Below, piece by piece: positions 6,985 to 51,476 of a DNA stretch of 64,000 nt. The position numbers and the translations under genes were made by a program. Numbering within the stretch: position 1 is the first letter of the stretch; each line of letters starts with the position of its first letter. The notes under the pieces are model-generated. The model was given only the letters and a program-made list of their open reading frames with translations. It was not told the origin of the DNA and searched no databases. Location of the stretch: assembly GCA_965246985.1 (NCBI GenBank), contig OZ251998.1:6505657-6569656 (forward strand), in the 5' to 3' direction. Source of the stretch: Candidatus Poribacteria bacterium. Lineage in GTDB: Bacteria; Poribacteria; WGA-4E; WGA-3G.

Positions 6985-8265
6985 GCGCGGTTCCATGAAG
7001 ATTAAATAATTAATTCGGTAATAATCCGACATAGTGTAGCAACTCCTGTGACCCGCCTTTGAACTGTTCCATGAAGTCGCTGACTTTCTCCTGAAGGGCT
7101 GTCCAGTCATTGCTGAGACGATGCAGATGTATGACAGCTTGACGCGCCCAGCGCCACAACTTCTCAATCGGATTCGTCCAACAGGCATACGTTGGGAGCT
7201 GCAATATCTCAATAGGGAGTTTCTCAAGTTTGCCTATTTTCTTTGACGGTTTCTCGCTCCAATTCGGTGGGGTCGGTCTAACAAACCTCGTCGTCTGTGG
7301 CAGAAGTGCTGCCATAAGATTCGCGTGAAAGTGGATCGCCCGATTGTCCTGGATCAAATAGATGCGTTCAGCGTTTGGGTAGCGTTGGCAAATCTGGGTG
7401 TAAAATGTATGGAGTGCGACAACCGTGCAGCTTTTGACTTGCTGATAAACAACATCTCCGGTGTGTGGGTTGAGCGCCCCGATGCCATAGCAGGTCTCCT
7501 CTGGGAGATAACTCTGGCGTGCCAAAGGACATTTCGTCCCTGTCTCCGCCCAGTCTTTTGCGACTCTCGGTTGTAGATTGAAACTAAACTCGTCTTGGTA
7601 AACGACAACGCAAGTTTCTGGGTTTTCACGGGCTTCTTCTAACGCTTGCTTGATGCGAGAAAGTTTTTCAGCATAATCGGTATCAGGACTCCGCAGATAT
7701 TCTCTGGCACGCTTATAGCTGAGACCCAAGCGTGAGAAGATCTGATGAATGCCGGGGAGCGATAGACCCTCAAGCCACGGCACGACCTGACCGAGACTGC
7801 GGAGCGTCCAGCGCGTTTGATGCTCATTGACGCTTCCCGGATCCTGACCGATTGCCACTAAGAGTTCCGACCCGGCTTCTTCGGGCGACTTAGGTGAAAA
7901 AGCAGGTTTGCGACCTCGACCAGGTTTATTAGACAACCCGCTAATACCGTGTTCGCGATACCGACGCAGCCAAGCATAAACGGTATCGGGGTCGCGTTTT
8001 TTCAACAAACCTCTGCGGGCGACTTCATGTGGAGAAAAGCCTTCATGGATTTTCAACAACGCTGTCGCACGCTCTCGAAGATAAGCCGGTTCGCCTTTAT
8101 CCCGAAGATCAACGAGGGCTTGTATTTCGCCTTCAGTTAACTCCAACTTATGGTGTTTTGCCATCAGAGAATACCTCCTTTGGCAATAGGATAACACGAA
8201 TAACAATATTACCGAATTAATATTTTAATCTTCATCAAACCGCGCCTACCGGGCCTGGGGGGTCC
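6985..8265 (-). mobile_element. IS630-family insertion sequence, intact, with about 39-bp imperfect terminal inverted repeats
   Basis: Left inverted repeat 6985-7023 is ggcgcggttccatgaagattaaataattaattcggtaat. Right inverted repeat 8227-8265 in reverse complement is ggcgcggtttgatgaagattaaaatattaattcggtaat. They enclose one DDE transposase gene. The exact ends and target-site duplication were not resolved. Confidence 0.8.
7010..8164 (-). CDS. IS630/Tc1-mariner family DDE transposase
   Basis: An N-terminal helix-turn-helix region (…LRDKGEP…WLRRYREHGISGL) is followed by a DDE_3 core (VVYQDEFSF…, IYLIQDNRAIH…, PTYACWTNPIEKLW). Start taken at MAKHHKLELTEGE (ATG at 8164). Confidence 0.85.
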   Translation of the reverse strand: MAKHHKLELTEGEIQALVDLRDKGEPAYLRERATALLKIHEGFSPHEVARRGLLKKRDPDTVYAWLRRYREHGISGLSNKPGRGRKPAFSPKSPEEAGSELLVAIGQDPGSVNEHQTRWTLRSLGQVVPWLEGLSLPGIHQIFSRLGLSYKRAREYLRSPDTDYAEKLSRIKQALEEARENPETCVVVYQDEFSFNLQPRVAKDWAETGTKCPLARQSYLPEETCYGIGALNPHTGDVVYQQVKSCTVVALHTFYTQICQRYPNAERIYLIQDNRAIHFHANLMAALLPQTTRFVRPTPPNWSEKPSKKIGKLEKLPIEILQLPTYACWTNPIEKLWRWARQAVIHLHRLSNDWTALQEKVSDFMEQFKGGSQELLHYVGLLPN

Positions 8266-9593: not shown

Positions 9594-10332
9594 AAAGTGT
9601 ATGGGAACCAAAACCGACAAAGCGGTTTTCACTGTAACAGGTACAACGCTTTTAACGTTCTTAATAGCAAGCCGTATTGGAACTATTTGGATTCTCTATC
9701 CGAATGTGTTGCTTGCGGTCTCTTTATTGTTTTACTGTATCTCACAAACTGATGAAGATGTGTCACTGCTCTCCAGCAGTTCTATTTTTGGGCTCGCAAC
9801 GGTGTTAACCTACGCACCGATGGACTGGTTATTTTCTCGGAAGGCGCGCCTCATCTTCTATCTGCGTTCAGATTTTTTGGCGAATACAACGACACCGATT
9901 GCGATAATTTTAAACTGGGTGGTGTTCGTGACCCTTGCAGCCTACTGTTATCAAAGGCTCACAGCGATTTGCCAAACCCGTTTCGCATCGGATTCTGAAA
10001 ATCGGAGGGGCGGTTTGATAGGAACTGCGATGTTGGCGGCGGGTGTCACGGGCATCGGTGCTGCGGTTGGAAGTATCGTAATTTACGCGCTTGGTGCATC
10101 ACATCTATGGCTATGGAATGCAACGCAGATAGATCGGATACCACAGATTGCATCCGTACCAATTTTTGTGCCCCTCGCTTTTCTATTCACGTTTCTGTTG
10201 TGTCCGTACTTCTTTGGCGTCGCTAATCGTTTTCTGAGGGCGCAACACGCAGGTGTGGCAGGGATACGGTGTGGCATCTTTATGGGGGCACTGCAGTTTC
10301 TCAGTTTTCTGCTGTTTTACGCATGGAAATAG
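9556..10332 (+). CDS. hypothetical polytopic membrane protein
   Basis: Multiple hydrophobic segments and no recognisable family motif. The start may be the internal Met at about 9601. Confidence 0.35.
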   Translation: MREKIRNQERFAEKCMGTKTDKAVFTVTGTTLLTFLIASRIGTIWILYPNVLLAVSLLFYCISQTDEDVSLLSSSSIFGLATVLTYAPMDWLFSRKARLIFYLRSDFLANTTTPIAIILNWVVFVTLAAYCYQRLTAICQTRFASDSENRRGGLIGTAMLAAGVTGIGAAVGSIVIYALGASHLWLWNATQIDRIPQIASVPIFVPLAFLFTFLLCPYFFGVANRFLRAQHAGVAGIRCGIFMGALQFLSFLLFYAWK

Positions 10333-10406
10333 GTGCGGATTGATAAGAAGTTGATTCGTTTGGCAACAAGAGCTTTTAACAACCGCAGGAAAAGGAAATC
10401 ACAAGT

Positions 10407-10943
10407 ATGCGAATTCGTTCAACAACGATTTTAGCCGTTCGGCGCGATGCGCAAGTCGCTATTGCAGGCGATGGTCAAGTCACTTTAGGCGATACAGCGA
10501 TTAAACATGGCGCCCGCAAAATTCGCAAAATCCATAACGACAAAGTGCTGATCGGTTTCGCAGGTTCCGCATCGGATGCAATCACACTCTATGAAAATTT
10601 GGAGAAAAAACTTGAGCAGTACCGTGGGAATCTTCAGAAATCAGCGGTAGAACTTGCACGGGAATGGCGCAGCGATAGGATCCTTAGGCAAGTAGACGCG
10701 CTAATGATCGCTGTAGATGCCAACGACAGTTACCTCATCTCTGGGAACGGCGATGTAATTGCCCCGGACGACGATGTTCTCGCCATCGGGTCAGGTTCAT
10801 CTATGGCACTTGCAGCGGCAAAAGCCATGCTCAAATACTCAGACTTGACCGCAAAAGAGATTGTTTCGGAGGCACTCCAACTCACAAGTGAAATTTGTAT
10901 CTATACCAATGCACGAATTGAAATTGATACAATAGAGATGTAG
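10407..10943 (+). CDS. hslV: ATP-dependent protease subunit HslV
   Basis: 178 aa. TTILAVRRD near the N-terminus (Thr active site after processing). GSGS and AAAKAM motifs. Immediately followed by hslU. Confidence 0.9.
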   Translation: MRIRSTTILAVRRDAQVAIAGDGQVTLGDTAIKHGARKIRKIHNDKVLIGFAGSASDAITLYENLEKKLEQYRGNLQKSAVELAREWRSDRILRQVDALMIAVDANDSYLISGNGDVIAPDDDVLAIGSGSSMALAAAKAMLKYSDLTAKEIVSEALQLTSEICIYTNARIEIDTIEM

Positions 10944-11074
10944 CGCGGTGCTATCCGAGTCGCATCGCCTAACCTATCTCATACACCTAATTGTACGGAA
11001 GCTGCCGGGCATTATCCATACAAAGCGGTTATGAAACAACTGATAGGGTTAATAATTTTTCGGGAGGTTTAACC

Positions 11075-12562
11075 TTGGAGAAATCAAATACAACGCGTGA
11101 AAAGAGCACTTTAGCAGATGCACTCACGCCGCGGCAGATTGTTGAGGAATTGGATAAATATATTATCGGGCAGTTTGAGGCAAAACGTTGTGTCGCTATT
11201 GCCCTCCGCAATCGCGCCCGGCGACAGATGTTAGAAGAAGATATACAAGACGAGGTATCGCCTAAGAACATTATCATGATAGGTTCAACAGGTGTCGGCA
11301 AAACGGAAATTGCACGCAGGCTTGCACGTCTTGTTGACGCGCCTTTCATCAAGGTAGAAGCGTCAAAATATACCGAAATTGGCTACGTTGGTCGCGACGT
11401 TGAATCCATGATTCGTGATCTCACTGAGACAGCCATTAGCCGCGTCAAAGCCGAACAGACCGAGGCAGTTGAGGAAAAAGCACGGGAATTCACTGAAGAA
11501 CGCCTCCTTGATTGTATCTTTCCTATTCCACGCTCTTTGCAGGAGCGTCCTCGTTTAGAAAAGGATATGCTTGACGAACCCGAAGAAGAGGATGATGACG
11601 TGGTCCTCCAGCTGCCTTTCGACCTTGGACCCGATGCGGAAACCGAAGCCGAAGAAGACCGAGATAAAGAGCGAGAACGGCACCTCAAAACCCGCGAGAA
11701 ATTTAGAGAGTGGCTACGCGAAGGTAGGCTTGAGGATAAACCCGTTGAAATCAATGTCAAGGATCAGAGTATGCCTTTTGTTGAAATCTTCTCGCCCGGC
11801 GGCATTGAGGAGATGGATATCAATTTTAAGGATATGTTTAGTAACATCCTCCCGAATCAGACCAAGAAACGACGGATTCCGGTCTCCGAGGCACGCACCA
11901 TCCTGATGCAAGAGGAAGCCGAAAAACTCATTGATATGGATGCTGTTATCAGCGAAGCCATTCAGCGCGTTGAAAACTCCGGTATTGTCTTCTTGGACGA
12001 AATTGACAAGATCGCAGGTAGAGAATCTCGACACGGACCCGATATCTCGCGGGAAGGTGTGCAACGCGATATCCTGCCCATCATTGAAGGTAGCACGGTG
12101 ACATCGAAATACGGCGCAGTGCGCACACACCACATTCTGTTCATCGCCGCCGGTGCGTTTCATGTTTCAAGTCCGTCTGACCTCATCCCAGAGCTACAGG
12201 GTAGATTTCCGATTCGAGTAGAACTGAAAAGCCTCAATAAGGATGACTTCAAATCTATCCTAACGGAACCGAAAAACGCGTTAGTGAAACAGTACGTAGC
12301 ACTCCTTAAAACTGAAGGGATAGAAGCGACTATCACCGACGACGCGATTGACAAAATCGCCGCGCTCGCTTTCCAAGTTAATGAATCGGTTGAAGACATC
12401 GGCGCACGCCGCTTGCACACCATCATGGAGAAACTCTTTGAAAATCTCTTTTTCGACGCACCTGACCTCGATAAAGAAGAAGTTACCATTGATGCCGACC
12501 ATGTCCAATCAGAGTTGGCTGAAATCGTCAAAGACCAGGATTTGAGTAGATATATCCTTTAA
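11075..12562 (+). CDS. hslU: ATP-dependent protease ATPase subunit HslU
   Basis: [32 protein letters not shown] (Walker A) and an I-domain insertion rich in acidic residues. Start proposed at TTG 11075, preceded by GGGAGG 7 nt upstream. The ORF-track start at 10991 looks over-extended. Confidence 0.9.
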
Positions 12563-12675
12563 TCAGATTGTCGCGGTGATGTTTCCCTCGTACGTATGTG
12601 GTGCAATCGGCGAAGGAATGCTAAGCTCTATCAGGAACCCGCTTGCCCATCCGGTAAGCGGGAGGGAAATTCAAC

Positions 12676-13878
12676 GTGCGACAGTTCCTAATTTTTACCC
12701 TTCTATTCATCTATGCCGCGTTCCTACCCAGCAGCTCTGCCCAAAATGGAACGCAATGGCGCGTACCAGAAGTCGACGCGGCACCCTTTGATGATACAAT
12801 GGTGCCAAATGCCATAGCCTTCTCCGCTGATGGCGCGAAACTCGCTGTTGCAACCGAAAGTGGTATTACCCTTTATGATACCTATACCGGGAAAGAACTG
12901 GCACTGTTTTCTGCACCGCTGGATAATGTGGTAGCGTTGGCGTTCTCACCCGATAATCAGACAATTGCAAGCGCGAGCGAAGATACTACTCTCCACCTCT
13001 GGGACACACGCACCGGTGAACACAGAAAAGATTTCATAGGGCATACCTATCCTGTTGTCGCGTTGGCATTCTCACCCGATGGTAATGCCCTCGCCAGTGG
13101 AAGTTTCAGAGAAACTCGTCTCTGGGACTTAACAACAGACCAGTCTATCCGTGTCTCAGTTCTTAAAGGACACCGGGATATGGTCACCACATTAGCATTC
13201 TCACCTGATAGCAAAACACTTGCCAGTACAAGTTTTTATGGCACGATCTTGTTATGGGATGTAGAAACAGTTCAACTCCGACACAACCTCTCCGCACATA
13301 CAGATTCAATCACAGCACTCGCCTTCTCGCCTGATAATCAAACTTTAGCGAGCGGCGGATATTGGAGTCCAGACGCAGAAAGCACAATTCGTATATGGAA
13401 TGTACACACCGGTCAACTCCTGACAACCGTTGACGGATATACCGATCCAGTTTTCGCCTTAGCATTCTCACCGGGGGCCCCGCCCGTTAACGGGGAAGGG
13501 GAATCGGACAGTATCTATGGAAACACACTCGCAAGCGCGGGTTGGGATAGCGCAATTCGTATGTGGCACCCGCAAACAGGAGAATTGCAAGCAATTTTTG
13601 AAGGTGATTCCGCGCCAATCCTTGCTTTAGCGTTTCTACCAGATAGCCACGGCACCTATAGGAACACACTCGCAAGTGCCAGCCTTGATGGCACAATCCA
13701 GTTGTGGCCCCTAACATCTATACCAAGACCGTGGGATGTCAACGCAGATGGTGTTGTAAACGTTTTAGATTTAACTTTCGTCGCCTCACGCTTCGGGCAG
13801 AAAACACCAGATATCAACGGTGACGGCATTGTAAATATTTTGGATTTGACGTTGGTAGCACAACACATTGGAGAATAG
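12676..13878 (+). CDS. secreted WD40-repeat beta-propeller protein with a C-terminal type-I dockerin module
   Basis: Signal peptide (…FLPSSSAQ). Seven or more WD repeats (LAFSPD…LWD). The C-terminal 46 aa, DVNADGVVNVLDLTFVASRFGQKTPDINGDGIVNILDLTLVAQHIGE, form two Ca-binding D-x-N-x-DG-x-VN-x-LDL segments, which is a dockerin I duplication. Confidence 0.8.
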   Translation: MRQFLIFTLLFIYAAFLPSSSAQNGTQWRVPEVDAAPFDDTMVPNAIAFSADGAKLAVATESGITLYDTYTGKELALFSAPLDNVVALAFSPDNQTIASASEDTTLHLWDTRTGEHRKDFIGHTYPVVALAFSPDGNALASGSFRETRLWDLTTDQSIRVSVLKGHRDMVTTLAFSPDSKTLASTSFYGTILLWDVETVQLRHNLSAHTDSITALAFSPDNQTLASGGYWSPDAESTIRIWNVHTGQLLTTVDGYTDPVFALAFSPGAPPVNGEGESDSIYGNTLASAGWDSAIRMWHPQTGELQAIFEGDSAPILALAFLPDSHGTYRNTLASASLDGTIQLWPLTSIPRPWDVNADGVVNVLDLTFVASRFGQKTPDINGDGIVNILDLTLVAQHIGE

Positions 13879-13888
13879 GAGGTGACCT

Positions 13889-16021
13889 ATGAAGTCTAAG
13901 CAACTCCGTTTCCGTGTAGTCATACCTTCCACGAGCGTTCGCCTTTGCAGCACTATCCAGACGCGATTTTTTAGTTTGGTGGCGTTTTCAATTATCGCCC
14001 TATTTCTGTCGAACACTTATGCCCAAGAATACACCCAAATGGGTTTACCCGAAGGCGCGAAACACCGCATAGGCAAAGGAGGAATAAACGGCGGTATAGC
14101 GTATTCACCGGACGGCACTCGACTCGCTGTTGGAAGTTCTATCGGTGTCTGGATATACGATGCGCACACCGGCGAAGAACTCGCGTTGTTCACTGGACAT
14201 ACGGAAACGGTTTTGTCTGTTGCATTTTCGCCCGATGGAAAAATTCTCGCAAGCGGTGCAGGTAGAAAATGGAATTGGTGGCGAGAAGATAGCGAGATTC
14301 GGTTGTGGGATGCGGATACCGGAGAGCACCTTACTACCTTGACAAGACCCCCAGAAATCGCGTTAGTGTTAGCAGAAACAGGGCAGCTTGAAGTCTGGGA
14401 ACTGGCGTTCTCACCGGATGGTAAAACACTCGCAAGTGCAAGTGGTGATGGGTCAATACGACTCTGGGATATAGAAACTGGACAGTATAGATCTATTCTT
14501 GAAGGAGGGCCTTTTATTTCGTCAGTGGCGTTTTCGCCGGATGGGAATACCCTCGTTAGCGGTGATTGGAACAACATGATTCAGTTGTGGGACGTAGCCA
14601 CCGGACAGCACCGTGCGACTCTCAAAGGACACATGGATCGCGTCTCATCTGTTGCGTTTTCGTCGGATGGTAAAACACTCGTGAGTGGGGGCTGGGACAA
14701 AACGGTTCTGTTATGGAATATAGACACCCGTTCCGTACGCGAGATCCTCACTGAACATACGAGAATTGTCTCATCTGTGGCGTTTTCGCCGGATGGTAAA
14801 ACCTTCGCAAGTGGGGGCTATGACCAGACCATCCGATTATGGGAAGCAGATACAGGAAAACTGCGTACTACCCTCTGGAAACATACAGATTCTGTTGATT
14901 GGATCGTGTTTTCACCGGATGGCAAAACTTTTGCAAGTGCAAGTTACGACGACGAGACAATTCGTTTTTGGGAGACGGATACAGGAGAACAACACATTAC
15001 TATCACAGGGCATTGGCGTTTGGGACCCGCGGCATTCTCGCCGGATAAGAGAACTATTGCAATTGGGAACAAGTCAGATACAATCTGGCTATGGGATGTC
15101 GTTGTAGATCAAAAACTCGCTACGCTCGTTGGGCATTCGAGAGATGTTACTGCTTTAGCATTTTCACCTAACGGTAGCACCCTTGCAAGTGGGAGCTGGG
15201 ACAGAACAGTCCGGTTGTGGGATGTGGCTACTGGAAAACTACGTGTTACCCTTGAAGGACATTCGGACATGGTTAATGCTATTTCCTTCTCCCCAGATGG
15301 CAAGATTTTGGCGAGCGGCGGGAATGCTAATAGGCTAATTTATTTGTGGGATACAGAGACCGGGACCAGACGATCTACCCTCAATACTCACACAACTGGT
15401 GTATCACTGGCATTTTCGCCGGGCGGTCAAACCCTTATGGGAGGAGGAGACGATGGCAAGATTCAGTTGTGGGATGTGAACACCAGCGAACTCCGCACGA
15501 CTATTCAAGATGACGATGGTTCAATTGGTGATGTGACGTTTTCACCTGACGGAAAAACAATCGCTAGTATAAACGGTCACGGTGTCTATTTGTGGGATGC
15601 AGATACCGGTCAACGCCGCACGACGCTTTGGGGGCGTACGGGGTACTATGCTATGTCAGCGTTCTCCACAGATGGCGCAATCGTTGCTGCACCTTGCATG
15701 GGCCACGGCATCTATGTGTGGGATATTCACACCGAAGAGCTATTCACAATCTTAGGTGGACCTACGTCTGAAACCGTTGCCTTAGCGTTTTGGCCCGATA
15801 GCCGTAGCCTTGTCAGCTCAAATTATGCCAGCATTCTCTTATGGGACCTCGCGCCGTATCTTGCCCAAACGCCTTGGGATATCAATGAAGACGGTGTCGT
15901 GAATATCTTGGATTTGACTGCTGTTGCTTCACGTTTTGGAGAGAGTTCACCAGATCTCAACGGTGACGGCATCGTCAACATCTTGGATTTAACACTCGTC
16001 GCACAGCACATCGGAGAATAG
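13889..16021 (+). CDS. secreted WD40-repeat protein (about 14 repeats) with a C-terminal type-I dockerin module
   Basis: Signal-anchor/signal peptide, many AFSPDGKTLASG…LWD repeats, and a C-terminal DINEDGVVNILDLTAVASRFGESSPDLNGDGIVNILDLTLVAQHIGE. Confidence 0.8.
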   Translation: MKSKQLRFRVVIPSTSVRLCSTIQTRFFSLVAFSIIALFLSNTYAQEYTQMGLPEGAKHRIGKGGINGGIAYSPDGTRLAVGSSIGVWIYDAHTGEELALFTGHTETVLSVAFSPDGKILASGAGRKWNWWREDSEIRLWDADTGEHLTTLTRPPEIALVLAETGQLEVWELAFSPDGKTLASASGDGSIRLWDIETGQYRSILEGGPFISSVAFSPDGNTLVSGDWNNMIQLWDVATGQHRATLKGHMDRVSSVAFSSDGKTLVSGGWDKTVLLWNIDTRSVREILTEHTRIVSSVAFSPDGKTFASGGYDQTIRLWEADTGKLRTTLWKHTDSVDWIVFSPDGKTFASASYDDETIRFWETDTGEQHITITGHWRLGPAAFSPDKRTIAIGNKSDTIWLWDVVVDQKLATLVGHSRDVTALAFSPNGSTLASGSWDRTVRLWDVATGKLRVTLEGHSDMVNAISFSPDGKILASGGNANRLIYLWDTETGTRRSTLNTHTTGVSLAFSPGGQTLMGGGDDGKIQLWDVNTSELRTTIQDDDGSIGDVTFSPDGKTIASINGHGVYLWDADTGQRRTTLWGRTGYYAMSAFSTDGAIVAAPCMGHGIYVWDIHTEELFTILGGPTSETVALAFWPDSRSLVSSNYASILLWDLAPYLAQTPWDINEDGVVNILDLTAVASRFGESSPDLNGDGIVNILDLTLVAQHIGE

Positions 16022-16140
16022 AAAGCAGTCGCATGAACCAGCAGCAAAATTACACTACGCAAGAGAATTTACAACTTGACGCAGGACTTATTGTATGGTA
16101 AAATAGCAATGTTAAATCAGATACTAAAAAGAAGGATAGA

Positions 16141-17961
16141 TTGATGAAATTATTACGAATGTGCGCGTCTCTGCTGGTATTGCTTCTCCTCGTTTCTCCG
16201 ATATTTGCTGAGGAAGAGACGGAAACCGAGACAACGCTTCCTGTCAAAAAATACGCTGAGTTCACGCTGAGCGGCACCTACACTGACACCAAAACAGTCA
16301 GCACCTTTGGCACCTCCTCAATAAAGACGCTCCGGGGGCTTTTTAAGAAATTAGATGCGCTCAAAACAGATGATGATCTCGCTGGAGTTATCTTCAAAAT
16401 AGAAGGTGTCAGCTTAGGGTGGGCAACACTCCAAGAAATCCGTACCGAACTGCATGAATTCCGCGATGCAGGAAAAGAGACGATCAGTTATCTGGAAAGC
16501 GGTGGTAACGCCGAATATCTTCTCGCTGCGACAATGGATCGCATCGTTCTTATGCCTACCGGAAGTCTCAATCTAACAGGCTTACGCGCCGAAGTTCTCT
16601 TTTACAAAGGACTTTTGGACAAATTGGATATTGAGGCAGACATGTTGGCAATGGGGAAATACAAATCTGGCGTTGAACCCTATATGCGCGATGGCATGTC
16701 GGATGAATTCCGTGAGTCAATGACTGCGCTGCTTGACGATCTGTACGCCCAATTGCTGAACCACATTGCTGAGAGTCGAGACGGTATTTCCACGGAAACG
16801 GCATCGGATTTGATAAACCGCGGTCCTTTCACAGCAGAAGAGGCAAAGCAGGAAAAATTAGTTGACGCTTTGCAATACTACGACGAATTAGTGACGGCGC
16901 TAAAAGCTGCATCTGAAGACGAAGAGGTACAGGTCGTCAAGCCGAGTTTTGAACGTAAGCGGACGGTCCCCGATATGAATAGTTTAGCTGGACTTATGCA
17001 GCTGTTCAGTATGTTGAATCCACCTCAGCGTGCGCGTGCTGCTGGCGAGAATCAGATCGCGCTTATCTATGCCAGCGGCCCCATTTTACCCGATATTGAT
17101 TCGCCTTTCATCTTAATGTCAGCGATTACGCCGGACGCATTAAAGAAGGCATTTCAGAAAGCACGCACCGACGATTCCGTTCGGGCAGTCGTGCTACGTA
17201 TAGACAGTCCTGGCGGTTCTGCACTCGCTTCTGACTTGATTTGGCGAGAGGTGATGCTCACACAACGCGAGAAACCGGTTGTGGTTTCGATGGGGAATGT
17301 TGCTGCCTCTGGCGGTTACTATATAGCGATGGCAGCCGGAACGATTGTTGCACACCCCAGTACACTGACGGGTTCAATCGGTGTATTCGGCGGTAAACTG
17401 AATCTGAAGGGACTTTATAACAAAGCCGGTTTGACCAAGGAGATTATCTCACACGGGCAGAACGCCACCCTCTATTCGGACTACGGCGGTTTTACACCGA
17501 CCGAGCGGGAACGCGTCGGAAAGATGATGAAAACCGTCTATGAAGATTTTGTCAGCAAGGCGGCAGCGGGCAGAGGTAAGTCCTTTGACGAAATTGATGA
17601 GATCGCACAAGGACGTGTCTGGACGGGAAAACAGGCGAAGGAGATCGGGCTCGTTGATAAACTCGGGGGGCTTGATACGGCACTGTCTATTGCCAAGGAA
17701 CAGGCAGGGTTCGCTGAGGACGACAAAGTTAATCTTATCATTTTACCAAAGCAGCGTCCCCTTTTTGAACAGCTAATGGAGCAGATACTTGAAGATACGG
17801 AGGGTTCAATTCAGCTTCCGCTACAATTGGCATCAAATCATCCTCTGCTGTCTATGTTAGGGACGCAGTCGCAGCATATCATTACGTGGCTGAGCCTGTT
17901 TGGTTTTGAAGATGGAACACAAATCGTGACAATCTTACCTTATGATATTTTAATTCGGTGA
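16141..17961 (+). CDS. sppA: signal peptide peptidase SppA (67K type, protease IV)
   Basis: 606 aa with a signal peptide. Tandem ClpP/crotonase-like S49 domains with …RIDSPGGSALASD… and …MGNVAASGGYYIA… motifs. Confidence 0.85.
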   Translation: MMKLLRMCASLLVLLLLVSPIFAEEETETETTLPVKKYAEFTLSGTYTDTKTVSTFGTSSIKTLRGLFKKLDALKTDDDLAGVIFKIEGVSLGWATLQEIRTELHEFRDAGKETISYLESGGNAEYLLAATMDRIVLMPTGSLNLTGLRAEVLFYKGLLDKLDIEADMLAMGKYKSGVEPYMRDGMSDEFRESMTALLDDLYAQLLNHIAESRDGISTETASDLINRGPFTAEEAKQEKLVDALQYYDELVTALKAASEDEEVQVVKPSFERKRTVPDMNSLAGLMQLFSMLNPPQRARAAGENQIALIYASGPILPDIDSPFILMSAITPDALKKAFQKARTDDSVRAVVLRIDSPGGSALASDLIWREVMLTQREKPVVVSMGNVAASGGYYIAMAAGTIVAHPSTLTGSIGVFGGKLNLKGLYNKAGLTKEIISHGQNATLYSDYGGFTPTERERVGKMMKTVYEDFVSKAAAGRGKSFDEIDEIAQGRVWTGKQAKEIGLVDKLGGLDTALSIAKEQAGFAEDDKVNLIILPKQRPLFEQLMEQILEDTEGSIQLPLQLASNHPLLSMLGTQSQHIITWLSLFGFEDGTQIVTILPYDILIR

Positions 17962-17965
17962 TCTT

Positions 17966-18772
17966 ATGAAATCCAAGACTGACTTTCATGTTGACTTAAC
18001 TGACGAACAAATCGCCTTCTTTCAAGAGAACGGATACCTGAGCATCCCGCGTATCACAACAGATGAAGAGGTTGAATGGCTCAAGGGCATTTACGATGAA
18101 CTCTTTACGGATCGCACTGGTGAAGCACAGGGTCGCTATTTTGATCTTGCGGGTCCACGGGCACACAACGGACAGGAAACTTTGCCACAAGTATTGGGTC
18201 CAGAGGCGCAATACCCTGAACTTCGCGAGACTGTCTATTTCCAAAATGCGCAGCGGCTCGCCGCGAAATTGCTCAGTGTAGAGACTGAAAAGGTTAGCGG
18301 CGGCGGACACATGATTTTGAAACCCGCACACTACGGCAATGAAACCCCGTGGCATCAAGATGAAGCGTACTGGAACCCCGAAGTCTTGCCGCATAGTCTG
18401 AGTGTCTGGCTTCCGCTTGATAAAGCGACGCTTGAGAGTGGGTGTCTCCAATTCATCCCGAAATCGCACAAGGGTGATGTGCGTTGGCATCGGCACATCG
18501 ACAATGATCCGCTCGTACACGGCTTAGTGACAGATGATGTTGATGTATCAGAGGCAGCTGCTTGTCCGATACCTGCGGGTGGCGCGACTTTCCATCACTG
18601 TCGGACTCTGCACCATTCCGCACCGAATAGCACAGCAGAAGCACGTAGAGCGTATATCCTCGTCTTCAGTGGACCCCCACAAAAACTGGATAAACCGGCG
18701 AAGCGTCCGTGGCAGACTGAGGAGCAAGAAGCACTCGCGGCACTGAAATCGTTAGCGGCAAAGCGAGTATAA
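17966..18772 (+). CDS. phytanoyl-CoA dioxygenase (PhyH) family Fe(II)/2-oxoglutarate oxygenase
   Basis: WHQDEAYW (H-x-D) plus a distal His (…TFHHCRTLHHS…). 268 aa. Confidence 0.75.
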   Translation: MKSKTDFHVDLTDEQIAFFQENGYLSIPRITTDEEVEWLKGIYDELFTDRTGEAQGRYFDLAGPRAHNGQETLPQVLGPEAQYPELRETVYFQNAQRLAAKLLSVETEKVSGGGHMILKPAHYGNETPWHQDEAYWNPEVLPHSLSVWLPLDKATLESGCLQFIPKSHKGDVRWHRHIDNDPLVHGLVTDDVDVSEAAACPIPAGGATFHHCRTLHHSAPNSTAEARRAYILVFSGPPQKLDKPAKRPWQTEEQEALAALKSLAAKRV

Positions 18773-18861
18773 GACGCATCCGTTTACGTAAGGCGATGTC
18801 TCAGTGTCTTTCCAGTTCCTTGTATTTGTCTACAGTCAACCAAAAGGTGGTATTTGAAATT

Positions 18862-19896
18862 ATGAAAATTGTCTGTACCGGCATCAGCTGTTCGGGTCGC
18901 AAAGAGTTGATGGCGAATTTTAAGATACTCTGCATGAAAAGAAAGTTGAGCATCGGATTCTTCAGCGTCGGTGATGTTATGCACCGCGCCGCTGCGGAAG
19001 CCCGTGTCCATTTTACAGACAAAGTTCTGGATTCGGATCCTGCGGTTTTATCTTTAGCGCGACGCACCGCTTTCTATGAAATCGCGCTACGCGCCGAATC
19101 CTATGAACATGCCATCATCGGGTTACACGGCTGCTTTCGATGGCGCGGGAGCCTCATTGAAGGGTTTTCTTTCAAAGATATTGAAATTCTTCTACCCGAC
19201 CTCTTGATTAACGTCGTTGACAATATCGCCGATATATCGGAACGGATGCAAGAAAGTTCACAATGGTCAGGGATGGGTAATGCGACACTCAATGTCTGGT
19301 TGGACGAGGAGGAGTTCCTGACGCGGCAAATCGCAAATCTCACGGAAAAGCCATACTACACTGTCGCAAGGCAACACAATCTTGAGAATTTTTATGAGCT
19401 GCTCTTTTCGTCAAAACCGAAATTTTACCTCAGTTACCCGATTACACTTTTAAGAGATACGCCCAAGGAAATTGAGAAAATCCGAGAGATCGGCGAAAAA
19501 CTGAGCCGTTCCTTTATTGTCTTTGATCCGCTCACAATTAAAGATATGGCACTGGTGACCGCTGGCGGAGAAGGGAGTAGTGGCACAGAGGATATACCTC
19601 CAACTATGAGTGAGATGGGTGAAGACGTGATCCAACAGATTAAGACGCGAACAATCTCCCGGGATTATCAATTCGTCCATCAAAGCGATTTTGTAGTTGT
19701 CATCTATCCTACGGACAAATTATCTCCCGGTGTCCTCAGTGAGATGAACTACGCTTCTCGCCATAACAAACCGGTGTATGCAGTTTACACTGGCACGCGG
19801 AGTATCTTCTTTGAGAACTTGTGTGACCGGATTTTTGACACCTTTGAGGAATTAGCAGACTTTCTGACGACTACGTATAAGGTAGACGAAAGTTGA
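18862..19896 (+). CDS. hypothetical protein; the C-terminal region resembles the SLOG / nucleoside 2-deoxyribosyltransferase-like Rossmann fold
   Basis: Start taken at MKIVCTGISCSGRKE, 8 nt after AAAGGTGG. The C-terminal …FVVVIYPTDKLSPGVLSEMNYASRHNKPVYAVYTG… resembles LOG/SLOG-family motifs. The N-terminal domain is unassigned. Confidence 0.35.
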   Translation: MKIVCTGISCSGRKELMANFKILCMKRKLSIGFFSVGDVMHRAAAEARVHFTDKVLDSDPAVLSLARRTAFYEIALRAESYEHAIIGLHGCFRWRGSLIEGFSFKDIEILLPDLLINVVDNIADISERMQESSQWSGMGNATLNVWLDEEEFLTRQIANLTEKPYYTVARQHNLENFYELLFSSKPKFYLSYPITLLRDTPKEIEKIREIGEKLSRSFIVFDPLTIKDMALVTAGGEGSSGTEDIPPTMSEMGEDVIQQIKTRTISRDYQFVHQSDFVVVIYPTDKLSPGVLSEMNYASRHNKPVYAVYTGTRSIFFENLCDRIFDTFEELADFLTTTYKVDES

Positions 19897-24249: not shown

Positions 24250-25492
24250 AAGGGGAAGGATGGCGGTATGTGTTATCAGAATCACAGAAAGCGCGGTGGG
24301 TGACATCCATGCAGCACGTATTGCCGGGTAAACACCAAAAATGACCCCCATGAAAATAGAAAAGATGACAGATATAACCTATACTCCGCACTTCTAATTT
24401 CGGATTTTTGGTATTTATTTTTTAAACCCACGTGGTTCCAACGTTCAACAAGCAATTTCAGGTGAATCAGAGAAGATATACGTGCGAAATGAAATCTTAT
24501 TTACCATCTCTAAATTTTATTATACTGTTTGGATCCTTTCGTGACGTGGGTTTGTCTAAAAATACCAAAATGTGTCAAAACAAGTGCGGAGTGTAGGATA
24601 TAAGTATCCACTGCACGGATAATACCACAGGTCACTCCTCCACAATCGGAACAATACGAACTGCGATGCGTGCCATGCCGTGGGCGAAGAGCCAGCCCCC
24701 GGCAATACCGAGTCTGTGTCTTTTGCGGAGTACCTCCTTGGCAGAGTTAATGACAGTATAGACATCTGTGCCTTTTTGAAAAAAGACGATGAGTCTTTCA
24801 ACATAACGTTCTGAAGATATACGCTGTTGACGTGTTGTCAATGGAACAAAAATGATGTCATCCATTGACATGCCACGGCTGAGGCTTTCGCCTCTGGGCA
24901 CCATGATACCAACCACGCGGCACCTAACCCACCTTCTGCGCCTGAGGCGGATTTTCACCTCTTGTCCAAGTGGCGGAGTATTTCTGAATAACTCTGTAGC
25001 GGCGTTGACACTAAGGACACAAACCTGCTTTGCGTTGTCAACATCGTCTTCAGAAAGGAATCGCCCGTGTTGCACTTCCCATCCCATAATGTGGGCGTAG
25101 TCTGCTGTCACACCTTCAATAGTCGAACGTATTTGGACACCTTGGTTAGATGTAACCCATCTCGGATACTTTCGATTTTGTGGCAAGACATAGAGCACAT
25201 CGGGGCATTCTGCTTCAATGGCACGTGCATCAGCGAGAGAGTATCGCTCGGTTGTCCGCTTCTTCGGCTTTCCCCGTGGATACGTATAAGGGCGGACCCA
25301 GAATCGCACGTGGTTGGGGCCGCCAAGTTTTTCAATGTCGTCGGCTATAATTTTTTGGGTGCCGTCGCCAATGGCCATCATGCAGAGAACACTCGCGACC
25401 CCAATAAGGATACCGAGGATGGATAATCCAGAGCGGAGTCGGTTTTGCTGAAGGTGCGCAATGCCAGAGGTTATCGCATCATAGCACTTCAT
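24250..25492 (-). pseudogene. FtsX/MacB-type ABC permease, cassette copy 1, disrupted by an in-frame deletion and a MITE insertion
   Basis: The N-terminal 255 aa are nearly identical to the intact paralog at 36660-37922. Then an in-frame 258-bp deletion joins …RKRHR to LGIAGGW…. The extreme C-terminus (…GVIFGVYPAIRAAWMSP) lies at about 24290-24350, separated from the body by a 230-bp MITE. Confidence 0.65.
24372..24602. mobile_element. MITE with about 60-bp terminal inverted repeats inserted in permease copy 1
   Basis: Left end is atataacctatactccgcacttctaatttcggatttttggtatttattttttaaacccacgtggt. Right end in reverse complement is atatcctacactccgcacttgttttgacacattttggtatttttagacaaacccacgtcac. 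The interior is AT-rich and non-coding. Confidence 0.6.
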
Positions 25493-27551
25493 GGTATAAA
25501 TAAGGTTTCATGTCCCAAAGCAGAACGGTACCATCATAACTACCACTTGCCAGAAGTTCGCCATCCGGTGTAAAAGCTAAATCCTGTACATCCGTTGTAT
25601 GTCCCCAGAAAGTGTGTATATTTTCACCCGTTGCGACCTCCCATATCCTTATGGACACTCTGTCCACCCCCCTTATCCACCACGCCCCAGAGACGAGGTA
25701 TTTTCCGCAGGGTGAAAATGTAAGCGCAAACGGTTTGCGACAGGTTTCAGGTAGCAGGATAAGCATGCGCGTTTCCAAGGTTGTTGCATCCCGCAACCGA
25801 ATATGATCATATATCCCACAAGCGATTGTCGTGCCACAGGGCGAGAAAGCGAGTTTGTAAGGGTTACACTTATAGCGTCTCCCTATTTTTCTATTTTTTT
25901 CGATATATTGGTGTATCTGATCTGGATCCCCTCTATAGAGGGACCTATCTTCTGGTAGTTCTGTAGGGAACAATCCGATCTGTTCACCACTGACTATATC
26001 CCAGAGTCTTACTGTGCGATCTTTGGCGACGGTTGCGAGGTGTTTACCGCTTGGATGGAAAGCGACTGTTAGAATATAATTTGTATGTCCTGTAAGCATA
26101 TTGACTTTCTTCCCAGACTGTGTGTCCCATACACCAATGTCTCCTGTACCGCCTGTAGGTGCTGTACCAATGAGATGTTCACTCGTAGGTGAAAAACACA
26201 TTGCAGCGTCAAATCCTTTACTGTCTGAGAGTTTTATAATGAGGGTTTCAGACGCAATATCCCAGATTTCAATTGAACCCCTCGGAAGTTTGCAAAGTGC
26301 CAGTCGTTCTCCACAAGTAGACAATGTGCTGACTCGGAATAACTGCTGTCTTTCTTCCGTTGTGAGATTTTTAGTTTGAGTCGTGTATTGTGCCTGCATC
26401 CGCTGCGTTGGGAAAACCTGTTCTGTTTGTCTCTGTGCCACATTCCAGCATACGAGCTGCGCACCAAACATTTCCCGACTTGTTAATGTCTTACCGTTTG
26501 TAAAAAAAGCAACTGAATGTACAACAGGTTGATGATCAGCGGCATTTGAAACTTTCGTTGACAGTGGCCCGACTGTCCATACACAGAGCTCGCTATGCGA
26601 CAGGATGGTCGCGATGTGTGCTCCATCGGTTGAAAAGTGATCATGCCTGCGGTTCTGACATTCAAAGGTATCTATTTTCTCTTTTCGGATAGCATCCCAA
26701 ATCACAACTTGATGATCGTAAATATCGGCAACGCGCAGTGTGCTATCAGGTGTATAGGCAGGGATTAACCTTCTCCCATCATAAATCGTGGGTTCCGTTT
26801 CCAAAGTGCCGTTGTAAACATTCCACACCAACACCTCAGTATTCTGATTGACAGCAGCAAGATATTGCCCACAAGGCGAAAAGATGAGACTACGGTACGC
26901 CAAGGGTGCTGAGCAGTGAAGGTCCGCAATGTGTTCACTTGTTTCTATATCGGAAATCGTGAGCGTGTGACGCGGGGTTCCAGCGGACACATATCCGAGT
27001 AAGTTCCCTATCGGAGAGAAACAAATTGGAAAGTGGTGTCCCCTCTCTTCTTCTGCTACGTCAATCGGAAAGTTTGTGATGGGTGCGTTCGTGTCTTTTT
27101 GCCAAGCGTAGACAACATTTTGCTTGTCAAAACAAGAGGCAGCTAAGTATTGGTTGTCTTGAGAAAAGCAGAGCTGCGAAAAACATCCTAACATTGCTTT
27201 TACATTCTTGCGATGGTCTATCTTTGCGAGGCACTGCAGACTTTGTGTATCCCATACCTTCACAACACCATCAAGATTGCTAGTGACAATCAACTGCGTG
27301 TCGTGTGAAAAGGCAATGGTATTAAGCATCCCGCGTTCTGTTTCAAATAAGGCAAGCGGTTTCAACGACAACCTATCATATAACCAACAGCCGATCGGCG
27401 TTGCTACAGCCAGATATTTACCATCAACCGAAAAGGACATATCCGACACGCGCCCCCTTGCTAATCTGCCGATCGCACCTTCAGGCAGGTGCCAGGTTGT
27501 CACATCCGTATCAACAGCACTTCGCATCAAATTAGACTTTTCTGATTGCAA
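25479..27551 (-). CDS. cytoplasmic WD40 beta-propeller protein, cassette copy 1 (690 aa)
   Basis: No signal peptide. N-terminal W-x-LPEGA-x-GRLARG module, then at least 12 WD repeats, ending …ASGSYDGTVLLWDMKPYLYHEVL. The stop overlaps the start of the permease. Confidence 0.8.
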   Translation of the reverse strand: MQSEKSNLMRSAVDTDVTTWHLPEGAIGRLARGRVSDMSFSVDGKYLAVATPIGCWLYDRLSLKPLALFETERGMLNTIAFSHDTQLIVTSNLDGVVKVWDTQSLQCLAKIDHRKNVKAMLGCFSQLCFSQDNQYLAASCFDKQNVVYAWQKDTNAPITNFPIDVAEEERGHHFPICFSPIGNLLGYVSAGTPRHTLTISDIETSEHIADLHCSAPLAYRSLIFSPCGQYLAAVNQNTEVLVWNVYNGTLETEPTIYDGRRLIPAYTPDSTLRVADIYDHQVVIWDAIRKEKIDTFECQNRRHDHFSTDGAHIATILSHSELCVWTVGPLSTKVSNAADHQPVVHSVAFFTNGKTLTSREMFGAQLVCWNVAQRQTEQVFPTQRMQAQYTTQTKNLTTEERQQLFRVSTLSTCGERLALCKLPRGSIEIWDIASETLIIKLSDSKGFDAAMCFSPTSEHLIGTAPTGGTGDIGVWDTQSGKKVNMLTGHTNYILTVAFHPSGKHLATVAKDRTVRLWDIVSGEQIGLFPTELPEDRSLYRGDPDQIHQYIEKNRKIGRRYKCNPYKLAFSPCGTTIACGIYDHIRLRDATTLETRMLILLPETCRKPFALTFSPCGKYLVSGAWWIRGVDRVSIRIWEVATGENIHTFWGHTTDVQDLAFTPDGELLASGSYDGTVLLWDMKPYLYHEVL

Positions 27552-31302: not shown

Positions 31303-32570
31303 TTATGTATCCGTTCGGAGGGCATCGATAGGGGCCATCTGCGATGCTCGGATAGCAGGATAGACACCAAAAATGATACCCATGAAGATTGAAAAGAGGA
31401 CAGAAATCACCATCCATCGCACAGACAGCACCACCGGCCACACCTCTACAATGGGTAGGATACGGACAGCAACGCGTGCCATACCGTGGGCGAAGAGCCA
31501 GCCACCAGCGATACCGAGCAGTGAACCACAAAAACAGAGGCTCATAGATTCGGTTAGAATTGATAGAAGATATCGATGCATCTTGCGCCGACGGCTTTTC
31601 GCAAACCGATCTCGCGCGTCTTCTCACCGACGGAGACAAGGCAGATATTCATAATCCCGATGCCACTGACAAGCAACGAGAAACCCGCAATGCCACCCAA
31701 GGCAATCTTTATCATTTTTTCAATGCGTTCAAGTTGTTTGACAGTTCGTTTGGGAATCCAATCATATACAAAGTTATCGGTACCCCGGTGTCTTTTACTA
31801 ATCACCTTCCGGGCGGATTTTACCACATCGGAAGCGTCTACGTCTTTTTGAAAAAAGATAATAAGCCTTTCAACATAGCGGATGCCCGTAATACGTTGTT
31901 GATACGTTGTTATCGGAACGCATATCATATCATCTAAACTCCCCCAGGTAATACTGAGGTTCCTCCCTTTCGGTGCCATGGTACCGACAACGCGCATCCG
32001 AACGGGTGTTTGCCGCCAATGATTCCGAAGTTTTATCTCTTGACCGATGGGGGAGACATTTCCGAACAACTCTTCAACTACGTTTGCACCCAAGACGCAG
32101 ACCTGTGTGGCGTTGTCTATATCGTTCTCGGAGAGAAATCTACCCGCTTGCAACTCGTACCGCAAGAGTTCGGCATAGTCTGCTGTTACGCCTTCCAGAT
32201 CAGCACCTCTGAATTGCCCGCCCAGGGGGCTGGTGACAAATGTATTATTTCTCCGATTCCGAGGTAGGACCCCTGTGACCTCCGGGCATTCTGCCTCAAT
32301 CGCAGGAGCGTCCTCCAAAGTATATCGCTCCGTTGTTGGATATCGTCGGCCGCGTCTCCAGCCAGATGTGTGTGTCCAGAATTGGATTTGATTTGCCCCC
32401 CCGATTTTTTCGATGTCATCGGCGATGATCTGTTTCGCGCCATCCCCGATGGCCATCATACAAAGGACACTTGCAATGCCAATGAAGATGCCGAGGATGG
32501 ATAATCCGGCACGGCTTTTATTTTCTTGGATATGCTTGATACCTGCAGCAATTGCCTCATGGAATTTCAT
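31303..32570 (-). pseudogene. FtsX/MacB-type ABC permease, cassette copy 3, split by a 1-nt deletion (frameshift)
   Basis: ORFs 31554-32570 and 31303-31581 overlap by 28 nt in different frames. Alignment to copy 2 shows caatttttgacagaatctat in copy 2 against caattctaaccgaatctat here, one base shorter. Confidence 0.65.
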
Positions 32571-32595
32571 GCGGCTCCACCCAATCTATGTTGGA

Positions 32596-34590
32596 TTAAG
32601 AACCCATCACGGATTTCAGGTCCCAGAGGAGGATGGTGCTGTCAAAACTCCCACTCGCTAAGAGGGTGCCGTCGGGTGAAAACGCGAGATCTTGGACATC
32701 GGTCGGGTGTCCCCAGAAGGTGGCGATGTTTTCGCCGGTGGCAACTTCCCACAAGCGAATAGGCACCTTTTCTGTTTCCACGGCCCTATTCCACCACGCG
32801 CCAGAAGCAAGATATTGCCCACAAGGTGAAAACGCCAAGGCACGCGGATTTCCATTGGTAGGTGCATGAGGAAGAGTCAAAAGAGTTCGACAATTATTGA
32901 CATCCCACAATCGGATTTCCGTTGCCATGCCACAAGCGATCTTATGACCGCAAGGTGAAAACGCGACAGTATAGACACGGTTGACACGGAACTCCGGATT
33001 TTCTTTCCCCGTATCGATGTCCCATAGATTTGCCATCGTGCCAGAAGAACTCGGAACACTTACAAGGTGTTTACCGTCGTGGCTGAATATAAGGCGGCTG
33101 ATACGATTATGATCATCATCCCAATTCCCTTCTAAGGGGAGAGTGTGTGTGAGCACACAGCGCACGTCACCACTTCTCATATCCCATACATACAGATGCC
33201 CTTTGCTATCCCCGCACGCGATGAGATGTCGTAGCGGGGCGTGTGCTGCGGCAGTCACCACTGCCTCTGGGTCGGGAAGTGTAAATGTCATAGGTGTCGT
33301 GTTTTCGTCGGCTTCCCCTATTTTAACGGTTATTTTAACAGTATTTTCATCATACGCAAATGCTGTCGAGTGAATTTTCTCTGAAGTGGACACAGAAACG
33401 GCTCGTGGGTCACCGGATATTTTGAAAAAAGTGGGCGGTTGCATGGGGTTGGCAATATCCCATAATAGCGTGCTTCCATACCTTACAAACCCGGCTGCCA
33501 CCTTTTTGCCATCTTGTGAGAACGCTACGGAATTCGGAAAACCGACATGTAAATGCGGCACCTTGCGGGGTTTGGTATCCCCGGGTGACCAGACTGCCCA
33601 TTCCTTTCCCCCAGCAACGACAAAATGCGAACTGCTTGAAAAAAGTGCTTTATCAATCTCCCATTCCTTTTCAACGTACGTGTAGCGTTTTTCATGACGT
33701 TCCACGTCCCACACGACGACAGTGTTTCTTTCCAGAGCATTTTCCAGAGTCTGAAGAACGCCTTCCTGTGAATAGCAGACGCTCATGCGAGAGGTGCCAT
33801 CATAGTTCTGATATACTCGCTGCTGTTCCCAAGTATTCACATTCCATACGTGCACTGTGCCTTTATCGCTGCCGATGGCCAGAGTTTGTCCACAAGGTGA
33901 AAAGCAGAGGCTGCGCACAAAGCTCGGTTGTTCGGTAAGACAGGCGATGCGCTCACCGGTTACGACATCCCACACCAAAACAACATCGGGGCCATCCGTT
34001 GTCCCGGCGGGAGCCGTACACGCCAGCAGGCGACTGTCTGGCGAAAAAGCAACGGGTCGAGGGAGGGAGGGGTAAGAACTGCGTGTTTCTCTTTGGGGGT
34101 CATGGAACGTAGCCAGCGGTGTGCCGGTTCTGGGGTCCCAGGTGTAGACAATCTCACAACGGCTACCTGTTGCGGCCAGGTGCTGGTTATCAGGTGAAAA
34201 GGCAAGAGACTTAATTGCAGTCGTCCTAGGGACTGGCTTTTTTAACCCTGGCCGCACAATTTTTGTAATGCAGGTGCTCCGCTGGATATCCCACACTTTG
34301 ATAACACCATCCCAGTTGCCGGTCGCAGCCAATCGCCCATCAAGAGAAATAGTAATGGCACCCAGCATTCCTCGTTCTGTTTCCCATAGAGCAACAGGTT
34401 GCATTGTCGCGAGTTCATACCACCAGAGCCCAATTTTGGTTGCGGCTGCGAGGTATGCTCCATCCGGCGATACTGCCATCGCCATCACAGTTCCACGCCC
34501 GAACCGAGAAATCGCACCATCCGGTAAAGCCCAGCTCATTGGATGACCTTTATCAGCGACAATGGGCGTGGACCCTGTTTTTTCTGACAT
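32596..34590 (-). CDS. cytoplasmic WD40 beta-propeller protein, cassette copy 2 (664 aa)
   Basis: AGGAGG sits 8 nt upstream of the ATG. N-terminal W-x-LPDGA-x-SRFGRG module, WD repeats, and a C-terminal …ASGSFDSTILLWDLKSVMGS. Confidence 0.8.
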   Translation of the reverse strand: MSEKTGSTPIVADKGHPMSWALPDGAISRFGRGTVMAMAVSPDGAYLAAATKIGLWWYELATMQPVALWETERGMLGAITISLDGRLAATGNWDGVIKVWDIQRSTCITKIVRPGLKKPVPRTTAIKSLAFSPDNQHLAATGSRCEIVYTWDPRTGTPLATFHDPQRETRSSYPSLPRPVAFSPDSRLLACTAPAGTTDGPDVVLVWDVVTGERIACLTEQPSFVRSLCFSPCGQTLAIGSDKGTVHVWNVNTWEQQRVYQNYDGTSRMSVCYSQEGVLQTLENALERNTVVVWDVERHEKRYTYVEKEWEIDKALFSSSSHFVVAGGKEWAVWSPGDTKPRKVPHLHVGFPNSVAFSQDGKKVAAGFVRYGSTLLWDIANPMQPPTFFKISGDPRAVSVSTSEKIHSTAFAYDENTVKITVKIGEADENTTPMTFTLPDPEAVVTAAAHAPLRHLIACGDSKGHLYVWDMRSGDVRCVLTHTLPLEGNWDDDHNRISRLIFSHDGKHLVSVPSSSGTMANLWDIDTGKENPEFRVNRVYTVAFSPCGHKIACGMATEIRLWDVNNCRTLLTLPHAPTNGNPRALAFSPCGQYLASGAWWNRAVETEKVPIRLWEVATGENIATFWGHPTDVQDLAFSPDGTLLASGSFDSTILLWDLKSVMGS

Positions 34591-37922: not shown

Positions 37923-37923
37923 G

Positions 37924-47995: not shown

Positions 47996-48007
47996 GGATC
48001 AGGCTAA

Positions 48008-49453: not shown

Positions 49454-49481
49454 AGTGCCGTTTTTCGTTTTTTAAGGATGT

Positions 49482-51434: not shown

Positions 51435-51476
51435 CAGCCATTCAACTGATAACCTGAAATATAAGGAGAATCCGCT

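Follow-up and report, generated by a model that had tools for sequence, protein, structure and literature searches.

Two adjacent genes in a 64,000-nt stretch of DNA from Candidatus Poribacteria (contig OZ251998.1; hereafter, the window) encode WD40 propeller proteins that end in a dockerin. We call the two open reading frames (ORFs) A and B; they lie on the same strand and fill window positions 12676-16021 exactly. Profile matches, ligand conservation, and predicted fold together establish that the C-terminal segments of both proteins are real dockerins. We read A and B as WD40 scaffolds exported by the Sec route, in which the dockerin would serve as a Ca2+-dependent plug to a conserved envelope receptor, and we put the probability of this reading at about 50%. 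An earlier reading of the DNA, made from the sequence alone, had described two adjacent secreted WD40 proteins with a duplicated C-terminal dockerin. This description stood up well, as the coordinates are exact and the Pfam Dockerin_1 profile (PF00404) is matched far above its cutoff. The genes and their dockerins are as follows (aa, amino acids).

12676-13878, + strand: ORF A, 400 aa, GTG start; putatively exported WD40 propeller with C-terminal dockerin, a Poribacteria core gene.
13889-16021, + strand: ORF B, 710 aa, ATG start; putatively exported double WD40 propeller with C-terminal dockerin, a variable-copy paralog of A.
13735-13875, + strand: dockerin of A, aa 354-400; segment 1 DVNADGVVNVLDLTFVASRFG, 4-aa linker QKTP, segment 2 DINGDGIVNILDLTLVAQHIG.
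15878-16018, + strand: dockerin of B, aa 664-710; first segment DINEDGVVNILDLTAVASRFG, linker ESSP, second segment DLNGDGIVNILDLTLVAQHIG.

Because WD40 matches crowd the profile tables, we scanned the tails (the last ~50-55 aa) separately. On their own, the tails scored 39.7 bits (A) and 40.0 bits (B) against PF00404, for which the gathering cutoff is 22.9, and the assignment made from the letters alone was thereby upheld. In B, the alignment fits 45 residues to 54 profile positions (3-56). The motif D-x-N-x-D-G-x-V-N-x-L-D occurs twice per protein (at aa 354 and 379 in A, and at 664 and 689 in B) and is absent from the other 824 window ORFs (six-frame, at least 40 aa). Likewise, a local hidden Markov model (HMM) built from both tails, against which the B tail scores 119 bits, found no further match among the 826 six-frame window ORFs. 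Both modules have the tandem F-hand layout, a Ca loop and then a helix, repeated once. The Ca loops are 12 residues long with ligands at positions 1, 3, 5, 9, and 12, and they read DVNADGVVNVLD and DINGDGIVNILD in A, and DINEDGVVNILD and DLNGDGIVNILD in B. The ligands of A (D354, N356, D358, N362, D365 and D379, N381, D383, N387, D390) are invariant in 35 full-length orthologs. Between the two segments of a module, 13 of 21 positions are identical in A and 14 of 21 in B, and such internal symmetry agrees with the dual-binding mode for which dockerins are built. We rejected a chance motif, given the score against the profile, the invariance of the ligands, and a motif confined to these two proteins within the window. 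We also rejected the NCBIfam “GC-type dockerin” model, which the tails matched at 15.7 and 17.1 bits against a cutoff of 29.

Structural comparison led to the same identification. A search of the PDB with a profile of 27 tails returned genuine cellulosomal dockerins only, with 2y3n_B as the best match (E 7e-10). When the tail was modeled alone with AlphaFold2 (AF2; 24 homologous sequences), it was predicted as loop-helix-loop-helix with a mean per-residue confidence (pLDDT) of 96. With this isolated-module model, the best 25 Foldseek matches in the PDB were all dockerins of solved cohesin-dockerin complexes, at template-modeling (TM) scores of 0.61-0.87. The first was again 2y3n_B (TM 0.87, root-mean-square deviation [rmsd] 1.6 Å), followed by 2ozn_B from Clostridium perfringens NagH (TM 0.79, rmsd 1.7 Å). 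Modeling of the Ca-binding loops, which had been suggested as a check, thus came out in favor of the original assignment, with a confidently predicted module that superposes on solved dockerins.

The remainder of each protein is WD40 repeat. Against the WD40 profile PF00400 (cutoff 27 bits), A scores 165 bits (E 1e-49) and B 334 bits (E 4e-103). There are ~7 WD-type repeats in A, while 17 loose-motif matches in B come to roughly double that number, and each half of B aligns with A at 36-39% identity. From these repeats, we read A as a single seven-blade propeller and B as two. The propeller of A reaches a pLDDT of 80-96 in the full-length AF2 model; an exact-match database lookup of ORF B gave no record. 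Upstream of each gene lies a ribosome-binding site:

12660-12666, + strand: Shine-Dalgarno-like GGGAGGG of A, 9 nt before the GTG, read from the sequence.
13877-13882, + strand: Shine-Dalgarno AGGAGG of B, 6 nt from the ATG and sharing bases with the TAG stop of A (13876-13878).

Because these sites precede A and B, both start codons are supported, and the overlap of AGGAGG with the stop of A suggests that B is translationally coupled to A. In 10300-18900, promoter and terminator patterns were no more frequent than in shuffled sequence, and counts at chance level are no evidence for or against an operon.

Altogether, the window contains six WD40 ORFs that share W-x-LPEGA-x-R-x-G. Three have a signal-peptide-like N-terminus (A, B, and 49482-51434), and two of these three carry a dockerin. 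The third was originally described as a secreted WD40 protein without a dockerin, and we agree, since its N-terminus is signal-peptide-like and it matches neither the tail HMM nor the motif. The other three WD40 ORFs, which the sequence-only reading did not mention (25479-27551, 32596-34590, and 37924-40080, minus strand), have no signal peptide, and none of them carries a dockerin. They belong to three paralogous WD40 and permease gene pairs (24632-27551, 31554-34590, and 36660-40080, minus strand), each with a 660-720 aa WD40 protein directly upstream of a gene for a MacB_PCD/FtsX-type permease. The permease ORF at 24632-25492 covers the periplasmic core domain only.

Export of A and B is suggested by their N-termini, where signal peptides were called by inspection and alignment:

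12676-12741, + strand: putative signal peptide of A, aa 1-22; MRQ, then FLIFTLLFIYAAFL, then PSSSA before Q, with cleavage at SSA/Q.
13889-14023, + strand: putative signal peptide of B, aa 1-45; a long n-region, then FFSLVAFSIIALFL, then SNTYA before Q, with cleavage at TYA/Q.

Across the A orthologs (n = 35), the hydrophobic core is retained, A22 never varies, and Q23 is kept in at least 90%. The B-type N-terminus is also present in orthologs at two related loci, L001 and L006 (related loci carry L numbers below). We observed Gln at +1 of the predicted cleavage site in A (12739-12744), B (14021-14026), the third WD40 protein, and most relatives. These A/Q sites resemble the “Q-rule” (pyroglutamate N-termini) of signal peptidase I substrates in Bacteroidetes. 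The conserved signal-peptide-like N-termini, the restriction of dockerins in the window to WD40 proteins with a signal peptide, and the sorting tails on some paralogs described below all point to an extracytoplasmic context, in which the dockerin would be expected to bind Ca2+. The sequence-only reading had gone further and proposed display at the cell surface. This part fared less well because A and B have only a Sec-type signal. The type IX secretion system (T9SS) sorting domain TIGR04183 (~80 aa), which ends some of their paralogs, is absent from A and B, and both proteins end 0-1 residues past the dockerin.

The tail is the best-conserved part of A and is widespread. More than 110 full-length homolog clusters match A at 59-84% identity, with PF00404 shown for almost all of them, and the named homologs are entered as “hypothetical protein [Candidatus Poribacteria bacterium].” A scan with one genome per species gave 66 loci, all but three titled Poribacteria, and the most conserved peptides that it chose were two dockerin-tail motifs. 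Scanning with these motifs yielded >595 matching stretches, 291 of them adjoining a WD40 relative. The gene order HslV-HslU-A-(0, 1, or 2 B-type)-SppA-PhyH recurs in 54 related loci (53 titled Poribacteria), and A is always between HslU and SppA in all 54. Copy number of the B-type genes varies: in the 44 of these loci scored as also containing SppA, there are none in 12, one in 14, and two in 17, and a single locus lacks B-type genes but has two of the A type. Median identities of the relatives in the 54 syntenic loci to the window proteins were as follows.

HslU, 92%
PhyH, 90%
SppA, 81%
A dockerin, 81%
A propeller, 66%
B, 45%

At 81% for the tail vs. 66% for the propeller, the plug has been kept more constant than the cargo. 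On these alignments, the higher conservation of the dockerin tail fits a conserved binding partner.

The same module is found on a range of other proteins. We fetched 69 related loci (1.25 Mb, all but three titled Poribacteria) and found 143 dockerin ORFs, with the module C-terminal in 124. In 16 of the 143, the dockerin is followed by ~155 aa, consisting of a linker and a T9SS type A sorting domain, which matched TIGR04183 at 32.7 and 30.2 bits (cutoff 23). We had considered this extension as a candidate cohesin and rejected it on that match. Six such genes lie in tandem at L054 2-14229, and others are at L057 4217-12178, L064 9968-12280, L065 7113-13411 and 18927-21485, and L067 2564-6283. 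The tailed carriers in these five loci are 850-1240 aa long and run signal peptide, WD40, dockerin, linker, TIGR04183. Besides plain WD40 propellers, the carriers include a protein with WD40 and leucine-rich repeats (LRR), small DUF3108-like proteins, and, at L065 7113-9968, a protein of 952 aa that combines four cadherin domains with a lamin-tail domain, a dockerin, and a T9SS tail. A DppA-like substrate-binding protein of an ABC transporter (L065 13743-15530; NF043070 at E 1e-113, below the model cutoff) has its dockerin N-terminal, right after the signal peptide. No carbohydrate-active enzyme with a dockerin was among the carriers seen in the window and the related loci, and the GH67/GH28-like protein of the window has no dockerin. 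The original suggestion of a use outside cellulosomes is therefore supported, since the passengers are binding and adhesion modules (WD40, LRR, cadherin, substrate-binding protein) rather than glycoside hydrolases.

The label “canonical type I,” which had been attached to the two modules, did not hold up as well as the label “dockerin.” In A and B, 25 residues separate the starts of the two Ca loops, the linker is 4 residues long, and the module spans 47-49 aa. The same 25-residue spacing was found in 126 of 156 loop pairs from the related loci, nearly all of them from Poribacteria. By contrast, the loops are 33-36 residues apart in the solved dockerins aligned with the tail profile, and the most common spacing among 146 profile-selected representatives is 33. 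Both modules are therefore smaller than a canonical dockerin (~60-70 aa, loops ~33-36 apart). Compared on sequence, they are a compact variant, 8-11 residues shorter between the Ca loops than solved dockerins. Contact residues differ as well. Type I dockerins of Clostridium thermocellum contact type I cohesins through S-T at positions 10-11 of the loop and K-R at positions 17-18 of the helix. The A and B dockerins have V-L and I-L at 10-11, and A-S and A-Q at 17-18, so neither would be called type I by a strict C. thermocellum-like definition. In addition, the best structural match, 2y3n_B, stems from a complex annotated as type II. The dockerin identity is established, while “canonical type I” is unproven. 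A profile of the compact dockerin matched 42,393 clusters (50% identity) at E <= 0.001, indicating a very large family; the top matches were poly-dockerin proteins, with nothing specific to WD40-dockerin proteins. When the 57-aa tail was searched against a collection of 5.8 billion proteins, only 24 short fragments came back, at least one of which (P0124) stems from a broken B gene, and the result was of no use as a survey.

Under the reading that we prefer, the dockerin would fold around two Ca2+ ions after export, in surroundings (seawater and sponge mesohyl) where this ion is abundant. The folded dockerin would then plug the propeller onto a conserved receptor of the cell envelope, in the periplasm or at the cell surface, and this receptor could be a cohesin or a functionally equivalent module. 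The propeller face would remain free to bind other proteins. A would be the conserved founding member, and the B-type genes would be its duplicated, fast-evolving paralogs of variable copy number. The same plug would be used throughout the phylum on other “eukaryote-like” passengers (WD40, LRR, cadherin), in some proteins alongside a C-terminal sorting domain of the T9SS type.

Several observations weigh against this reading. In the full-length AF2 model of A, pLDDT falls to only 44-51 in the dockerin. The 25-residue spacing drops the linker of every solved cohesin-binding dockerin that was matched, and on this comparison, cohesin binding cannot be assumed. We did not find a cohesin (PF00963) in window ORFs of at least 150 aa, in ~115 kb of Pfam-annotated related loci (L001-L003 and L070-L072), or in the 10 dockerin carriers and secreted neighbors tested (L064-L067), a search that covered well under 1% of Poribacteria genome space. 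Since A and B have no outer-membrane translocation signal, their place in a diderm cell may be the periplasm. Wherever a T9SS tail follows, the dockerin is superfluous as an anchor. Finally, synteny around A and B continues through unrelated housekeeping genes, from ThiG to RimK. Taken with the chance-level promoter and terminator patterns, this means that the neighboring genes are uninformative on function.

The sequence-only reading itself offers the strongest alternative, a “poribactosome” in which cohesin scaffoldins encoded elsewhere in the genome would assemble dockerin proteins at the cell surface; it amounts to our own reading with a cohesin as the receptor. There is a precedent in the “planctosome,” a peptide-degrading cohesin-dockerin complex proposed in 2019 for freshwater Planctomycetes (PMC6461901). 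The modules of A and B have a true dockerin fold and sequence, an internal symmetry typical of cohesin-binding dockerins, and a strongly conserved tail, and the T9SS-tailed paralogs imply surface exposure. Still, nothing that was sampled contained a cohesin, and neither the compact linker nor the contact residues, which are non-canonical, match those of characterized cohesin binders. Many non-cellulosomal genomes reportedly have dockerins without any cohesin, which also counts against such a complex, as does the outcome of our literature searches, which found nothing relevant linking Poribacteria or sponge symbionts to bacterial dockerin or cohesin modules. We regard this alternative as unlikely. 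Similarly tentative is an extension of our own reading, in which the compact dockerin could be a general address tag specific to the phylum, with a divergent cohesin or a new module as its receptor, for Ca2+-dependent surface display. If so, it would represent a display system for factors that interact with the sponge host, with the conserved A as a core component.

It is also conceivable, and in our view improbable, that the dockerin has no partner and acts as a Ca2+-dependent element of folding or stability, or as part of a sorting signal. Such a module could be unfolded in the low-Ca2+ cytoplasm and, like RTX repeats, snap shut once exported; alternatively, it could act with the T9SS-type tail. 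That the Ca ligands are the most conserved positions would suit this explanation, yet the non-ligand positions in the helices that a partner would contact (LDLTxVA) are also highly conserved, both across species and between A and B. The module directly precedes a T9SS tail in 16 paralogs and directly follows the signal peptide in the DppA-like protein, but 124 of the 143 dockerins have no T9SS tail, and we know of no role of dockerins in secretion. The failure to find a cohesin agrees with a dockerin that lacks a partner. The least probable explanation is that A is a periplasmic housekeeping scaffold for the envelope or proteostasis, tethered by its dockerin to a component of the periplasm or of the inner face of the outer membrane; its fixed place between HslU and SppA in all 54 syntenic loci, its Sec signal with no outer-membrane translocation tag, and the probable coupling of B to A are in line with this, but the whole 20-kb region is syntenic, unrelated genes included, no promoter or terminator pattern above chance joins these genes, paralogs with the same dockerin bear surface-sorting tails, and A evolves faster (66%) than its housekeeping neighbors (81-92%).

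Compared with known systems, the A and B modules resemble cellulosomal type I and type II dockerins in their ~21-residue duplicated segment with a 12-residue Ca loop (D1, N3, D5, N9, D12) and a helix. They also share the PF00404 match, a superposing predicted fold, the C-terminal position on a secreted protein, and high internal symmetry. The structural reference 2y3n_B is the dockerin of B. cellulosolvens Cel48, and 1ohz_B and 2ccl_B are that of C. thermocellum Xyn10B. Unlike the cellulosomal dockerins, A and B have the 25-residue loop spacing, with the middle linker or helix missing, and other contact residues. Their passenger is a WD40 protein rather than a carbohydrate-active enzyme, and their host belongs to a marine, probably diderm, candidate phylum. 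The second-best structural match, 2ozn_B, is from the dockerin-cohesin modules of the C. perfringens NagH/NagJ toxin complex, an experimentally proven case of a non-cellulosomal dockerin. That system differs in its Gram-positive host, its glycoside hydrolase passengers, and its known cohesin partner.

Non-cellulosomal dockerin-like modules have been surveyed before (Peer et al. 2009, FEMS Microbiol Lett 291:1, as cited in PMC6487960). With these and with the planctosome, A and B share secreted, non-cellulolytic carriers, occurrence in phyla without cellulosomes, and a proposed Ca2+-dependent assembly tethered to the envelope. A lamin-tail domain is the proposed anchor of the planctosome model (PMC6461901), and a protein with a lamin-tail domain and a dockerin is also found in Poribacteria (L065 7113-9968). 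However, cohesins were found for the planctosome, and its passengers are peptidases; the Poribacteria loci that we sampled yielded no cohesin, and the dockerins there have repeat or adhesion modules as passengers. The WD40-dockerin gene is also, unlike the planctosome genes, a syntenic core gene throughout its phylum.

Within Poribacteria, abundant WD40 proteins have been described by Kamke et al. 2014 (PMC3909097), many of them with a TIGR04183-like (Por-secretion) C-terminal domain. The same study reported that PhyH genes are likewise abundant and that the partial Poribacteria genomes contained no T9SS genes; it neither mentions dockerins nor describes the HslU-A-B-SppA arrangement. Our genes come from the same phylum and the same protein expansion, and the TIGR04183 tail is confirmed on paralogs, whereas A and B end at the dockerin without it. 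Dockerin use outside cellulosomes is already known, and our results do not overturn current understanding. The new points are the lineage, a syntenic core gene that encodes the WD40 passenger, the compact loop spacing, and a connection of dockerins to the known eukaryote-like proteins of Poribacteria. These bacteria are dominant, uncultivated sponge symbionts whose many eukaryote-like repeat proteins are suspected to be host-interaction factors. A conserved docking module on many of these proteins, the product of a syntenic core gene among them, is a concrete, testable handle on their destination and attachment. The dockerins that work outside cellulosomes also gain a lineage that is well sampled and a structurally compact variant.

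A few further observations concern the genes around A and B and the rest of the window. The HslU ORF (10991-12562) has a TTG start and 523 aa, 28 aa beyond the 495-aa genes of relatives, and its true start is probably an internal codon. On the minus strand, a DDE_3/helix-turn-helix transposase gene (7010-8206) lies between BPD_transp_1 and ArsA-like genes that are separated in L001 and L002 by only ~400 bp of intergenic DNA; from this comparison, it looks like a strain-specific insertion sequence. One long-contig assembly shows the A/B region (L070 4646-12048) broken up into many short ORFs, probably by frameshift errors or as pseudogenes. One of these, P0124, is a 72-aa “dockerin-only” protein left over from a broken B gene; database entries of this short, dockerin-only kind therefore need to be treated with caution.

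The third secreted WD40 gene (49482-51434) lies in a cluster at 46370-56419 with genes for an extracytoplasmic function (ECF) sigma factor, a LamG-like protein, and an alpha/beta hydrolase. The cluster also holds a 1147-aa protein with LamG, GH67, and GH28/beta-helix regions and a CotH kinase-like protein. At 57602-61750, genes for a MoxR AAA+ ATPase, a DUF58/VWA protein, and a BatA-like protein stand in a row, forming a Bat/aerotolerance-type operon.

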